A stretch of DNA of 64,000 nucleotides from the UHGV virus genome UHGV-1359874; one strand, written 5' to 3'. Below, in pieces: positions 23,930 to 26,855 of the stretch. The notes below the pieces were generated by a model. The model was given only the letters and a program-made list of their open reading frames with translations, had not been told where the DNA came from and searched no databases. This DNA is from a virus. Numbering within the stretch: position 1 is the first letter of the stretch; each line of letters starts with the position of its first letter. A program made the position numbers and the translations under genes.

Positions 23930-23955
23930 AGGGAACGATTTTTACATCGTTCCCT
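23930..23955. terminator. bidirectional terminator hairpin at convergence of plus- and minus-strand blocks
   Basis: Stem agggaacgat / atcgttccct, with T-runs on both sides. Confidence 0.6.
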
Positions 23956-24259
23956 CGATTTTCTTAAATATTTTATTGGTTATTTCAATTATTTCATAAC
24001 CATAAGTAGCAACTAAATCTGCAAGTATTTCTTCTTGATCTATATTCAACTGCACATTATAGCTATACATTGCGGCGTGGGTTATTTCATGACAGAGAAC
24101 TCGCCAGCGCATTTCTGCATTGAGCATATCATTGACATAGATCGAACTAGTTTTGTTATTGCAAGACCCGAGAGTTGTTACGCCATCGGGCCTCCGCAGT
24201 TCAGGGTGATTAGGCGAAACAAAATAAATATGCCACCACCGCCCATTTATATTAAACAT
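23942..24259 (-). CDS. SprT-like zinc metallopeptidase domain protein
   Basis: TLGSCNNKTSSIYVN...RVLCHEITHA matches the SprT-like pattern: LGxC, a hydrophobic stretch, then HExxH. Confidence 0.5.
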   Translation of the reverse strand: MFNINGRWWHIYFVSPNHPELRRPDGVTTLGSCNNKTSSIYVNDMLNAEMRWRVLCHEITHAAMYSYNVQLNIDQEEILADLVATYGYEIIEITNKIFKKIEGTM

Positions 24260-24261
24260 AA

Positions 24262-24798
24262 TTAATTAATTTTTGTAGATAGAGTTGCTATTTTTTGTTT
24301 AAGAACTTGTTTTTCTTCTGGTGTTGCTTCACGAATCATATCCATAATATCTTCTGTCAATTCTTGCATATATGTTTCAAGCTCTTTCATGGTTTTGCTT
24401 GAATCGTGATGTAATTCATGAGATTCCATATACATCTTTCTAGACATTGGACTCTTGCCTTCGCGAGGATCCCGCTGCATCATGTCAGGAGTTAATTCTC
24501 TTTCTCGATAGCGGCCGCGATTATCTTTATCATAACCGTAGTCATCATACATCCAATCTTCTAGGTCAGTATCACGTCCACGGCGTATCCGCTTTTTATC
24601 ATATGGGCGATAATACTTTGTATTCTCTTCATTTTCTTCCATCGCTTTAACAATAGAAGAATAATACATTGCTTCATATAAATCTTTAATCATATCAACA
24701 GCTTCACCCAGTTCATGAGTATTAGCTTTTGAAGGATTAGCAAGTTCACATTGAACTAAGTTTTCTAAGCAATCTTTCATTTCACAAAGTTTTTTCAT
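24262..24798 (-). CDS. hypothetical highly charged Tyr/Arg/Asp-rich protein
   Basis: YYRPYDKKRIRRGRDTDLEDWMYDDYGYDKDNRGRYRERE low-complexity segment. The start is placed at the ATG behind an AAAGGGTGG RBS. Confidence 0.4.
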   Translation of the reverse strand: MKKLCEMKDCLENLVQCELANPSKANTHELGEAVDMIKDLYEAMYYSSIVKAMEENEENTKYYRPYDKKRIRRGRDTDLEDWMYDDYGYDKDNRGRYRERELTPDMMQRDPREGKSPMSRKMYMESHELHHDSSKTMKELETYMQELTEDIMDMIREATPEEKQVLKQKIATLSTKIN

Positions 24799-24799
24799 T

Positions 24800-25222
24800 T
24801 TACGCCACCCTTTCAACAATCAAGTTTGCATTTTGCACATTGATTGCTACTGTATTGATATTGCGGATTCCAATAGTAGAGCAGCAACAAGCGGGTATAT
24901 CTAAATAAATACTTGAACTTACGTTAAAGTATTCATTAACTGCTGCAGGAGTAACTGTCATAGTTGTAGAAGTTACTGGTTCTCCATCAACAGTAAGAGC
25001 TAAAGAAATAGGACCTGCAGTTCCACCAGTTGGCACAGCAATATTTCCACCAAAATAAACGCGAAAACGCGCTCTGCACTGAGTAGAGGTTAAACCGCGT
25101 AATTTAACTTGACCAGAACCCTGTGTATGAATAATTGAACAATTTCCAGGTACACGGACTGTATTAAAAACAACGTTGCTATTGGCATTAACAACTTGTA
25201 CAACATCATTAATAATTTCCAT
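24800..25222 (-). CDS. BclA C-terminal-domain-like (exosporium TNF/C1q-like fold) protein
   Basis: VFNTVRVPG, LTVDGEPVTSTTMT and the terminal ...NANLIVERVA parallel the B. anthracis BclA CTD (PFNTVGSQ, LTIQVNGVPVPG, ...SASIIIEKVA). It contains a CCC triplet. The start is at the second ATG behind an AGAGGAG RBS. Confidence 0.5.
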   Translation of the reverse strand: MEIINDVVQVVNANSNVVFNTVRVPGNCSIIHTQGSGQVKLRGLTSTQCRARFRVYFGGNIAVPTGGTAGPISLALTVDGEPVTSTTMTVTPAAVNEYFNVSSSIYLDIPACCCSTIGIRNINTVAINVQNANLIVERVA

Positions 25223-25249
25223 AAAGTCTCCTCTTTTCATATCAGGAGT

Positions 25250-25274
25250 CTAGCCCCTATATTTCAAGGGGCTA
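25250..25274 (-). promoter_or_regulatory. intergenic stem-loop (possible mRNA processing/stability element)
   Basis: ctagcccct / aggggctag hairpin. It is not followed by a T-run on the minus strand. Confidence 0.35.
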
Positions 25275-25287
25275 GGCTTAGAATTGA

Positions 25288-26073
25288 TTAGCAGCAAGCA
25301 GCCTGAACACCGCAGCATCCCTGACGCCAACCATAGTTCCCAGTGTAAGGATTAGGAACTTGATAGGCAGGAATAGGAGGCGGATTTAGTGTAGAAACTA
25401 AATAGTTGTTCTGCGCTGCCTGACTTGCCGCAAATTTCAAAGACTGGTTATCAGCGGTAAGAGATGCAATCTTATCCTGCAAAGCCTGAGTTTGCATATC
25501 CTGAATAGCAGCTAAGATACTGCGAGTATTACCATCCTGATTTTGAGTAATCGCAGTAGAAGCATCCGCAATAGCTTGACGAGTCTGGCAGGACTGTTCA
25601 GCTAAGCGGTAATTCAGATCCGCGGCCTGGGTTGCTGACTCATAGCGATTAGTGCAGCAGCAATTTGCGAGCTGATTGCTAAGAGCAGTAATCTGGGCCG
25701 TTACAGCATTGGTATTCTGCATATCATTGATAGTCTGCTGAGTAATATTATTATTAACACCAGCAAAACCATTCAGCATACCAGTGTTCATAGCATAGAA
25801 ACCATCACAGACACCATTATTTACGGCATCTAGTTTACGCTCAATATTAGCGAAGTCAGATGTTAAAATGTATCCATCTGTAATGCCGGAGCCAGTGGAG
25901 CCATCGCCTCCAAAGAGTCCACCACGACCGTTGCCCCAGCCACCTGCGAAACAGAACAGGAACAGAATGATAATCCACCAAGACTGGTTTCCACCCCAAT
26001 CATCAGTGCGTCCATTGTTACCAGTAGCCGCCGCAATATCAGCTAAGCTATAACCTTCATTGGTATTAAACAT
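25288..26073 (-). CDS. membrane-anchored Gly-rich / Cys-rich protein
   Basis: One hydrophobic segment WWIIILFLFCFAGGW, then a GGWGNGRGGLFGGDGSTGSG segment. It has an NCCCTN triplet and a C-terminus QGCCGVQAACC. Confidence 0.4.
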   Translation of the reverse strand: MFNTNEGYSLADIAAATGNNGRTDDWGGNQSWWIIILFLFCFAGGWGNGRGGLFGGDGSTGSGITDGYILTSDFANIERKLDAVNNGVCDGFYAMNTGMLNGFAGVNNNITQQTINDMQNTNAVTAQITALSNQLANCCCTNRYESATQAADLNYRLAEQSCQTRQAIADASTAITQNQDGNTRSILAAIQDMQTQALQDKIASLTADNQSLKFAASQAAQNNYLVSTLNPPPIPAYQVPNPYTGNYGWRQGCCGVQAACC

Positions 26074-26131
26074 AATGTACCTCCAGTTAATTTAAATATT
26101 AGTTTTGGGTTGATACTTACATATATTTAAT

Positions 26132-26380
26132 TTAAAGCCCCATCGTCCGCCTGAAGCTATTAAATTCTTTATCAAAATCCACACCTTGCGAAGCTGCAAT
26201 ATTTCTAACAACTTGTTCAATTCCTTTTGAATCATTACTTTTCATTAATTGCAATAGATTAGCAAAGACTGGATTCTGATTTGCTTGAGCACTTACCATA
26301 TTCATAACAAACTGTTGCGGATTTCCTGATTTTTTAATCATCTGCAATAGCTGTAACATCATTGTAGAATTAGTAGCCAT
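26132..26380 (-). CDS. hypothetical Gln/Met-rich small protein
   Basis: 82 aa. Confidence 0.35.
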   Translation of the reverse strand: MATNSTMMLQLLQMIKKSGNPQQFVMNMVSAQANQNPVFANLLQLMKSNDSKGIEQVVRNIAASQGVDFDKEFNSFRRTMGL

Positions 26381-26855
26381 TTAAATTAATCTCCTTTTTA
26401 TGTGCGGGTTTCACTTCTGTAGTGGTAGGGACTGAAGTCACTATCCGTTCTTGAGTAAGAACCGCATCAATTTTTTGTTCAATTTCCGCAATTTTATTTA
26501 ATATGATTTCTGTATCAGTAGAAGTTTGCTCTTGAACATTTGTAGGACTTTCAACAGGAGCAACTGGCTTAAAAGTGAGAATTGTTGTAGTTCCATTAGG
26601 CATCCATGATTTTACATATATTTCACTAAAGTCAGCTTTTGGAAATACACCATAACTACCTATTGGTACTTCAGTAACTTTCACTATATCTTCACTATCA
26701 ACAACTTTTCCATTCAGCGGCAATGGTATGTTATTTTGAATATTAGCTTGCGGCTGAGATTGTGGTATAGTGTAAGAAGGCGCATACTGAACATTTCCAT
26801 TATTAAATTGGTACGGATTATAATAATTAGGATTATAATAATTCATAAATACCAC
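26370..26855 (-). CDS. hypothetical protein with Tyr/Asn/Pro-rich low-complexity N-terminus
   Basis: NYYNPNYYNPYQFNNGNVQY repeats followed by a coiled-coil-like C-terminal part. GTG start as called by the ORF track. It is the first gene after the 26953-26992 terminator. Confidence 0.4.
   Translation of the reverse strand: MVFMNYYNPNYYNPYQFNNGNVQYAPSYTIPQSQPQANIQNNIPLPLNGKVVDSEDIVKVTEVPIGSYGVFPKADFSEIYVKSWMPNGTTTILTFKPVAPVESPTNVQEQTSTDTEIILNKIAEIEQKIDAVLTQERIVTSVPTTTEVKPAHKKEINLNGY

Follow-up and report, generated by a model that had tools for sequence, protein, structure and literature searches.

A widespread six-gene late cassette of gut phages encodes a predicted Cys-rich coiled-coil protein and a stand-alone TNF-like jelly-roll

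What do the six tightly packed genes on the minus strand of the virus genome UHGV-1359874 make, and where does their product act? The genes, called g1 to g6 here, lie between two terminators in the 64,000-nucleotide stretch of that genome that was analyzed (the window), as seen in the list of its open reading frames (ORFs) and by direct reading. An earlier note on this DNA had described a terminator-bounded cassette of spore-surface-like and Cys-rich membrane proteins located after the lysin gene, and had named surface remodeling and virion decoration as alternatives to a spore role. Those two alternatives are now the leading readings. Our tentative proposal is that the cassette, an autonomous late unit, makes a Cys-linked complex of stalk and knob with an anchor at the cytoplasmic membrane; an accessory fiber of the virion is almost as good an explanation.

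The cassette is conserved as a unit. We collected 90 loci and built one hidden Markov model (HMM) per gene. Both g3 and g5 were present in 88 of the 90 loci, g1 in 81, g6 in 80, and g2 in 49, the last count being based on a weak, short HMM. The gene order in the collected loci was always g1-g2-g3-g4-g5-g6, with g1 directly 5' of g2 or g3 and g5 directly 3' of g4. Colinear g1-g6 blocks occurred in about 80 independent viral contigs, mostly of 70-190 kb (a relative at 97% identity measures 130.6 kb), and this synteny shows that the features described in the earlier note did not arise by chance. Searches with g3 and g4 each gave more than 7000 clusters at 90% identity (E ≤ 1e-3), none with a name, and at least 548 matches to g4 were confirmed among the first 600 pattern matches in IMG/VR. 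DNA nearly identical to the cassette was absent from GenBank phages. Literature searches on BclA-like and fusion-like proteins of phages and on crAss annotations gave nothing on this cassette, which fits no described phage module; the earlier note had likewise failed to match it to one. The alignments indicate that the six genes are under strong purifying selection and co-inherited in a fixed order.

Homologues of g3 were found in crAss-like, Bacteroides, Clostridium perfringens, and archaeal viruses, in several genomic settings. The small temperate phages Butyrivibrio virus Ceridwen and Dulem virus 33 encode g1, a g2-like protein, g3, g4, and a g5-like protein; their cassette follows the endolysin, a separate transmembrane (TM), holin-like protein, and a small helix-turn-helix (HTH) protein, and lies just 5' of the integrase. 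In C. perfringens phage CPD1, g1 and g2 are followed by an inserted endonuclease gene, g3, and then a different Cys-rich beta protein (MTCNRRCNCCNRR...). In the crAss-like phage cr116_1 the block comprises seven genes, for HTH and HExxH proteins, a g3-like protein (E 4e-34), a 136-amino-acid (aa) beta protein with KCGC, a protein with beta and coiled-coil parts, a charged protein of 74 aa, and another HExxH protein. The block is flanked by an L,D-carboxypeptidase gene and a homologue of gp31, the gene before the major capsid gene; these two flanking genes are adjacent in crAss001, which identifies the block as an insertion. Bacteroides phage C3_41T2LP carries the same gene set after its replication genes, including a "PolyVal metallopeptidase" and a protein with REDYGREYDRDYDRDYDRE; a charged Tyr/Arg/Asp-rich protein of this phage is the counterpart of g5. 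Viruses assigned to Methanomassiliicoccales have g3-like genes with two CCC motifs, and there g3 stands alone.

The partners of g3 in other lineages are different small beta proteins, each with an adjacent Cys pair; profile comparison gave no homology between g4 and the small proteins encoded next after g3 in CPD1 and cr116_1 (probability 0.4%). In four phages an HNH-type endonuclease gene adjoins g3, as would suit a gene that is conserved and often exchanged. All recorded sources of related sequences were animal gut, rumen, or feces. Genome-based host assignments came only from bins of metagenome-assembled genomes (MAGs) and are unreliable: most were Clostridia, and implausible assignments to Akkermansia, Alistipes, and Methanobrevibacter also occurred. 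The cassette is very widespread in gut phages and is not specific to spore-forming hosts.

The best-defined component is g4. Its AlphaFold2 (AF2) model, built from a 30-sequence alignment, is confident and all-beta (predicted local distance difference test score, pLDDT, 86.7; predicted template modeling score, pTM, 0.80) and has the ten strands of a TNF/C1q-type jelly-roll. A Foldseek search with this model ranked F-BclA, ExsFA/BxpB, and BclA at the top (template modeling scores 0.67-0.76), at a sequence identity of just 14-19%. The likeness to the C-terminal TNF-like domain of BclA claimed in the earlier note holds at the level of structure and fails at the level of profiles: neither BclA_C (PF18573) nor any other Pfam family matched g4 at E ≤ 1, and the NCBIfam scan returned no family, TIGR03720-type models included. 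The protein is a member of phrog_20016 (E 3e-50), a PHROG of unknown function, and is strongly conserved, with a mean column identity of 82%. Among the best 150 of 807 representative relatives, which are 77-196 aa long, the domain spans nearly the whole protein; none of the 150 is fused to a collagen-like stalk, and no fusion to any stalk provides a Rosetta-stone link to g3. The best matches among viral models are stand-alone gut-phage proteins of about 135-145 aa.

On the strength of the model, g4 is assigned at fold level to the TNF/C1q superfamily, nearest to its Bacillus exosporium branch, and is presumably trimeric. It shares its fold with the C-terminal domains of BclA and F-BclA (1WCK, 9H38), which form the nap of the Bacillus exosporium and the tip of F-ENA. 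Unlike them it is a separate, phage-encoded polypeptide with an invariant CC pair and without a collagen-like stalk. The modeled architecture is nearest to ExsFA/BxpB (7R1M, 8D02, 9H3D), a stand-alone TNF-like anchor that binds the Pro-rich leader of BclA or F-Anchor. There is no sequence homology between the two, and the candidate docking motif in the phage system would be C-terminal on a coiled coil rather than an N-terminal leader on collagen.

These neighbors speak for the spore-coat or exosporium role, in which BclA/ExsF-like, Cys- and Tyr-rich phage proteins would join the surface of the host spore. The cassette proteins also have coat-like traits (no signal peptides, a high Cys content, and tracts rich in Tyr, Asp, Lys, and Arg), and the carriers are apparently mostly phages of Clostridia. 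The exosporium leader of BclA is PPIPPFTLPTG and that of F-Anchor is ALPPIYIPTG; the C-terminal PPPIPAYQVPNPYTG of g3 loosely resembles them. However, profiles for BclA_C, ExsY/CotY, CotC, and the exosporium leader all lacked a match (for the ExsY/CotY/CotZ family, of which the earlier note had proposed to check ExsY/CotY, no Pfam or NCBIfam match was obtained with g3 or g4), no collagen-like stalk is present, the genes are expressed with the lytic late genes, and the link to Clostridia is based on MAG bins alone. The core of the cassette crosses to crAss-like and Bacteroides phages and g3 to viruses assigned to methanogens, and none of these hosts sporulates, so a spore-specific role is very unlikely.

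The central protein of the cassette is g3, a member of phrog_16490 (E 1e-32), likewise a PHROG of unknown function. In an alignment of 36 relatives, the N-terminal peptide MFN..GYSLADIAAATG is conserved, as are the Pro-rich motif PAYxVPNPY and a C-terminus rich in Cys, with CGC/CC clusters. Invariant positions include W32, W33, C138-C140, C162, L205, N209, L212, and A216. A Gly-flanked hydrophobic segment covers residues 32-46. The AF2 model of g3 was poor (pLDDT 50), so it was read for secondary structure only and could not serve as the query of a fold search; the predicted helices are 32-42, within the hydrophobic segment, 71-84, 90-113, and a long one at 121-229. The alignment and the model agree that a C-terminal hydrophobic segment is absent. 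Almost no Lys or Arg flanks the N-terminal segment: summed over 42 sequences, positive and negative residues number 31 and 68 on its N-terminal side, against 23 and 16 on its C-terminal side. If the segment is inserted in a membrane, this bias favors an N-out/C-in orientation, without a firm assignment of topology. We also considered g3 as a type IV pilin-like protein, as a sortase substrate, and as a YjcZ-family protein, and rejected all three: it has no class III signal motif, its NPYTG is not followed by a TM segment or a basic tail, and no YjcZ profile matched.

In profile searches of the PDB with g3, only influenza HA2 recurred, at non-significant E-values of 0.11-1.6 (residues 73-140 of g3 against 69-138 of HA2). 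The aligned region ends at the CCC motif, near HA2 Cys137. These matches are probably an effect of coiled-coil and Cys composition, and similar HA2-like profile matches probably explain why annotators of crAss phages labeled g3 homologues "spike protein/glycoprotein" or "outer capsid protein/viral fiber". The matches nevertheless raise an explanation that we consider improbable, in which g3 would be a class-I-fusion-like protein with a Gly-rich hydrophobic peptide freed through cleavage by g6, a coiled coil, and a Cys link to g4 as the binding subunit. Such a device would be carried by the phage or released with it, and by inserting into a target membrane would serve genome delivery or act on neighboring cells after lysis. 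Its Gly-flanked segment without flanking basic residues is like that of fusion peptides, the labeling of crAss homologues was done by independent annotators, and a peptidase is a conserved member of the cassette. The needle of P22 (gp26) and Sf6 (gp9), a fusion-protein-like coiled coil with a TNF-like knob (3rwn), offers a precedent. Against this explanation stand the E-values, the lack of a second membrane anchor, the lack of a defined cleavage site, the existence of related phages that dispense with the cassette, and the apparent abundance of g3, which is at odds with a needle of three copies. As similarity to HA2 is non-significant and the C-terminal anchor is missing, g3 does not qualify as a class I fusion protein.

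A broader version, to which we give equally little weight, is a mobile cassette for an abundant, protease-primed, Cys-linked two-subunit machine that inserts into or remodels lipid membranes. Here g3 would contribute the Gly-rich hydrophobic peptide and the coiled coil, and a small beta-sandwich protein, TNF/BclA-like in this phage, would be the binding subunit. The machine would be a functional analogue, in non-enveloped phages, of class I fusion proteins or of the archaeal-virus egress protein PVAP. It would be common to tailed phages of gut Firmicutes and Bacteroidota and apparently to viruses of methanogens, and its action would not depend on the envelope type.

The expression class of the cassette can be read from its relatives, many of which are recoded at TAG: g1, g3, g4, g5, and g6 regain full HMM coverage when TAG is read through. 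In recoded phages, the pattern of in-frame TAG marks the late genes. The rate in the cassette genes is about that of the upstream tail genes, which assigns the cassette to the late genes, and the convergent genes of nucleotide metabolism (early genes) are mostly free of TAG. For example, 9 of 10 minus-strand ORFs are TAG-free in the relative L007, and in L081 there are 51 TAG codons in 2683 aa versus 3 in 1990 aa. In-frame TAG was seen in late genes of L007-L010, L031-L036, L045, and L060-L089, which include contigs of 255-260 kb. The recoding is a property of the relatives; the phage of the window itself uses the standard code.

Within the cassette, g3 has the codon signature of a major late gene. 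The window contains a distinct codon class formed by the genes at 59299-60357, 60378-60905, and 54322-55284, with a GC content at third codon positions (GC3) of 0.35-0.43, a preference for CAG, AAG, GAG, CGT, and GGT, and neither ATA nor AGA codons. A terminator-like hairpin stands 3' of every one of them, and they presumably encode the capsid, scaffold, and major tail proteins. We used these three genes as the codon reference, the first two being presumed capsid and scaffold by position only and the third matching a "virion structural protein" PHROG. Neither Pfam nor the PDB recognizes any of the three, and no PHROG name confirmed the presumed major capsid gene. By log-likelihood score, g3 is the best match to the reference among the other window genes. 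Its GC3 of 0.385 is the third highest of the 51 window genes, its CAG:CAA ratio is 18:4 (26:1 in the reference and 251:487 in the rest of the window), and it lacks ATA and AGA. In 52 of 78 loci, no other gene of the cassette reaches the GC3 of g3.

The earlier note did not mention a hairpin between g3 and g4, which we add here (folding energy about -17.8 kcal/mol, z -3.0). Hairpins are found at the same place in several lineages, with different sequences and compensatory changes in the stem, and are absent in others. The hairpin may be an attenuator or an mRNA stabilizer, and the presumed capsid and tail major genes likewise have a hairpin 3' of the gene. Together with the codon signature, it suggests that g3 is highly expressed, by our inference at levels well above those of g4-g6.

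These signals bear directly on the idea that the cassette decorates the virion, which we regard as a real but somewhat doubtful possibility. In this explanation g3 would form trimeric stalks and g4 knobs on the HK97-fold capsid or the tail, attached by the N-terminal peptide and the hydrophobic segment, assembled in the cytoplasm and locked by disulfides after release. The fibers would give gut phages adhesion or stability, with g2 and g5 as chaperones and g6 as a maturation protease. The lack of a signal peptide in all components, the late, TAG-recoded class shared with tail genes, the codon usage and 3' hairpin shared with the presumed capsid and tail major genes, and the polar, low-charge composition reminiscent of tail fibers all agree with it, as do the animal gut, rumen, or fecal origins noted above. 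Clusters of Cys at the ends of coiled coils resemble the interchain staples of extracellular trimeric fibers. Because the HK97 fold is common to podo-, sipho-, and myoviruses and to archaeal tailed viruses, a capsid-binding fiber could be transferred among them. On the other side, a TM-like segment with an invariant WW is unknown in decoration proteins, the cassette of small temperate phages follows the lysis genes outside the structural block, and some phages give it an HTH gene of its own. Phage crAss001 has no cassette, yet its virion lacks nothing; the conservation of g4 is unlike that of receptor-binding tips, and six genes are many for such a role. Decoration therefore accounts better for the composition, the cysteines, the high expression, and the absent signal peptides, and less well for the TM-like segment and the genomic position.

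The membrane-anchored complex, which we put first with some hesitation, would work as follows. The cassette is an autonomous, late accessory unit of moron-like architecture, with its own promoter-like site and terminators, and moves horizontally among gut phages. The hydrophobic segment of the abundant g3 would be its membrane anchor, and the rest of the protein a long, polar coiled-coil stalk with invariant Cys clusters. In this phage g4 would be the knob, which makes the proposed stalk-and-knob complex one of two polypeptides. Docking of the Pro-rich C-termini of g3 on g4 would follow the example of exosporium leaders on ExsF, with the paired cysteines of both proteins as the link. No partner has a signal peptide, which places assembly on the cytoplasmic side of the host membrane, and the acidic N-tail of g3 (N-out/C-in) would agree with this. 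Non-enzymatic assembly or chaperone roles would fall to g1, g2, and g5, and g6, a small zincin, would process a component or a regulator. The membrane is the only structure common to the Firmicutes, Bacteroidota, and archaeal hosts of g3, and for this reason we place the site of action there; the complex would act in a late step independent of envelope type, for example in the timing of lysis, in egress, or in the fate of the membrane at lysis. The cassette also behaves like a moron set beside the lysis genes, at times with its own HTH gene.

Several points weigh against this proposal. No named homologue bears on the function, and with a g3 model of pLDDT 50 the stalk and any trimer of g3 are putative. 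The few Lys and Arg residues next to the hydrophobic segment are atypical of a bacterial membrane anchor, and the segment may equally be a fusion peptide or a buried hydrophobic core. Both g3 and g4 are polar and low in charge (0.11), like extracellular or virion fiber proteins and unlike cytoplasmic coiled coils, and the conserved cysteines are better explained as extracellular disulfide staples. Expression of g3 appears to be far above that of g4, unlike a 1:1 ratio of stalk to knob. The tail of g3 gave no match to the exosporium-leader profile, and PAYxVPNPY is also kept where the partner is not g4-like. Finally, the carriers among small phages encode a holin of their own besides the cassette.

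A direct part in lysis as holin or spanin found no support. Separate TM proteins follow the endolysin in Ceridwen and Dulem virus 33, cr116_1 carries an annotated holin, and in the window g3 is about 8 kb from the endolysin. The neighboring ORFs have no lipobox or signal peptide, no PHROG spanin matched, and the carriers include phages of monoderm hosts and archaeal viruses. Like T4 holin T and the i-spanins (Rz), g3 has a short N-terminus, a single hydrophobic helix, a large C-terminal domain, and important cysteines, and both are late and often near lysis genes. It differs from them in the absence of homology and of a lipoprotein partner, in its monoderm and archaeal hosts, in its non-basic flanks, in the presence of separate holins, and in its greater length and polar coiled coil.

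The last gene, g6, and the borders of the cassette bring in one more explanation. The earlier note had called g6 a SprT-like HExxH peptidase. The HExxH part stands: an alignment of 19 sequences has invariant H57, E58, H61, E76, E77, and D81, and by this motif g6 is a minimal HExxH...E zincin. The SprT-like part does not, as PF10263 scored 17.4 bits, below its cut-off of 25.6; the best Pfam match was Peptidase_M78, at the threshold (22.1 bits, cut-off 22). Against the PDB, the g6 profile found the 110-aa MJ1213 first (E 0.015), and IrrE had an E-value of 0.29. With its 105 aa and its HExxH and downstream Glu, g6 is thus like MJ1213 and the M78 proteins ImmA/IrrE, at marginal scores. In contrast to ImmA/IrrE, no XRE repressor adjoins g6 in the window.

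This relationship, and the moron-like architecture, would suit a superinfection-exclusion or defense moron, in which competing phages would be kept from adsorption or DNA entry by a membrane complex, made either by the prophage or late in infection, and g6 would form an ImmA/ImmR-like regulatory pair with an HTH partner. In temperate phages the cassette has the lysis genes on one side and the integrase on the other, it opens with HTH genes in cr116_1, Ceridwen, and Dulem virus 33 (in cr116_1 with HTH and HExxH genes), and such a role would not depend on the type of envelope. We still judge it unlikely. PADLOC models gave no match to the cassette, only scores at chance level (E 0.017-0.036); exclusion and defense genes evolve fast, unlike this widely conserved cassette under strong purifying selection; large phages that appear to be lytic also carry the cassette, whose genes fall in the late recoded class; and the window cassette has no HTH gene, beside g6 or elsewhere. 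What probability remains after all these explanations goes to something else.

Compared with known systems, the cassette has the marks of a moron: terminators, a promoter-like site, varied places of insertion, and absence from relatives such as crAss001, which has no counterpart of the block inserted in cr116_1. It departs from morons in having six co-conserved genes rather than one or two, strong purifying selection, and the codon usage of major late genes. The P22 gp26/Sf6 gp9 needle and the PRD1 P5 spike are single polypeptides in tail or vertex modules, with three copies per site and without a hydrophobic segment or Cys clusters, whereas the cassette is autonomous, divides the parts between two genes, and apparently makes g3 in abundance. 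Its most fitting place is among the stalk-and-knob fibers, as a new variant that is split and anchored.

The features of the locus are listed in Table 1. The terminator upstream of g1, whose native folding energy was matched by none of 200 shuffles, is the end of the upstream tail/fiber operon and the 5' boundary of the cassette. The bidirectional terminator is shared with the convergent strand of early genes and is the 3' boundary. Both lie within a few bases of where the earlier note had placed them, and the position after the lysin gene is also correct: the Amidase_3/SH3 endolysin is at 34719-35483, upstream, with five further genes and a terminator between it and the cassette. No convincing late-promoter motif common to the intergenic regions was found.

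Table 1 Coordinates of the cassette genes and signals in the window
Feature	Position	Strand	Description
Intrinsic terminator	26958..26994	-	15-bp stem then U-run; folding energy -20.9 kcal/mol, z -6.2
Promoter-like site	26907..26936	-	TTAAAA-18-TAAAAT, between terminator and g1; 9/12 consensus match; weak, candidate
g1, 161 aa	26370..26855	-	GTG start; Tyr/Asn/Pro-rich N-terminus MVFMNYYNPNYYNPYQFNNG
g2, 82 aa	26132..26380	-	Met/Gln/Asn-rich, helical; 8 Met, 9 Gln
g3, 261 aa	25288..26073	-	Hydrophobic WWIIILFLFCFAGGWG, Gly-rich flanks, NCCCTN, GCCGVQAACC end
GC-rich hairpin, 9 bp	25250..25275	-	13 nt 3' of g3 stop; without U-run
g4, 140 aa	24800..25222	-	TNF/C1q jelly-roll, stand-alone; ACCCST; invariant CC (113-114)
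g5, 178 aa	24262..24798	-	39% charged residues; YYRPYDKK...YDDYGYDKDNRGRYRERE
g6, 105 aa	23942..24259	-	CHEITH; predicted minimal zincin metallopeptidase
Bidirectional terminator	23929..23956	both	11-bp stem, T-runs on both strands; folding energy -19 kcal/mol, z -6.0

For g4 we took the ATG behind a GAGGAG ribosome-binding site as the start (the mechanical ORF has 146 aa), and g5 was taken as 178 aa (185 aa from a TTG in the mechanical ORF). The features that the earlier note had listed, namely the start of the 161-aa protein, the Gln/Met-rich 82-aa protein, NCCCTN, GCCGVQAACC, the CCC of the 140-aa protein, and YYRPYDKK, are all present, and the unusual composition that it reported is real. 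The fraction of charged residues in g3 and g4 is the lowest among the 51 window proteins, and their Cys content is 3.6-3.8%, compared with a window mean of 1.7%. Direct reading found no signal peptide or lipobox in g1, g2, g4, g5, or g6.

The remaining proteins matched little. Scans of g1-g5 with Pfam, NCBIfam, and PADLOC gave nothing above threshold, and sequence searches of the PDB with g1 and g5 found nothing. The layout of g1 is a Tyr/Asn/Pro-rich N-terminus, a small beta domain, and a coiled-coil helix; it belongs to phrog_21718 (E 1e-8), of unknown function, has 181 clusters, none with a name, and matches a protein of CPD1 at E 2e-25. No family in Pfam or NCBIfam matched g2, which has counterparts of 66-77 aa at the same position in Ceridwen, Dulem virus 33, and CPD1. 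In g5, helical ends (DMIKDL..A.YY and RD.REGRSP.SRK.YME) bracket a variable Tyr/Arg/Asp/Gly-rich tract, and proteins of Ceridwen and Dulem virus 33 have the same type of architecture.

In these two phages, a 125-aa protein with a conserved Cys and His (MWIKYNPNP...DC.VRA) is encoded directly 5' of g1 (L002 6984-7361 and L001 6355-6735) and is possibly a papain-like peptidase. It is preceded by a small HTH protein like sigma region 4. The window cassette has no counterpart of either.

The g3 and g4 families are among the commoner uncharacterized late gene families seen here. The g3 core crosses phage morphotypes and host domains in the gut and is apparently expressed at the level of a major virion protein; from this spread and expression level, the role of the cassette is likely to be general and quantitatively important in the biology of gut phages. 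Current annotation misses the cassette or mislabels its products as "spike glycoprotein", "viral fibre", or "BclA protein", and g4 shows that the TNF fold of the BclA/ExsF branch also exists outside spores. Carriers in culture are the C. perfringens phages CPD1 and XP41-N3, Butyrivibrio phage Ceridwen, and Bacteroides phage C3_41T2LP.

Other genes of the window deserve mention. On the late strand, the only other membrane-type protein is a 157-aa ORF at 52594-53067 (minus strand), located among the tail genes upstream of a 2867-aa ORF, with an N-terminal TM helix, then a charged coiled coil, and no family match. No holin adjoins the endolysin in the window. The 2867-aa late ORF (43231-51834) has one Cys in total and three weak hydrophobic segments near residues 864-929, and a 1473-aa late ORF (38696-43117) has no PHROG or Pfam match; the two are probably a tape-measure-like protein and a tail or baseplate protein.

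The gene for anaerobic ribonucleotide reductase, nrdD, is split in a region of three ORFs (16621-18432, 18640-19341, and 19548-19898). Positions 1-444 and 458-562 of the NRDD profile fall on separate ORFs with an unassigned 233-aa ORF between them, which suggests insertion of an intron or a mobile element; NrdG follows at 19888-20388. Two Cys-rich ORFs, 21885-22886 and 10590-11687 (4.5-5.5% Cys), combine several copies of a module "G.LTV...C.CDCGNE" with a C-terminus weakly like the DUF2726 nucleases; the ORF that separates g2 from g3 in CPD1 matches this module (E 5e-9). Both are probably homing-endonuclease-like mobile genes, and one is 1 kb from the cassette. Lastly, in the archaeal-host virus Caudoviricetes sp. 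vir215 (L131), a g3-like gene at 2152-3186 lies just 3' of an annotated reverse transcriptase (phrog_1423), possibly part of a diversity-generating retroelement.

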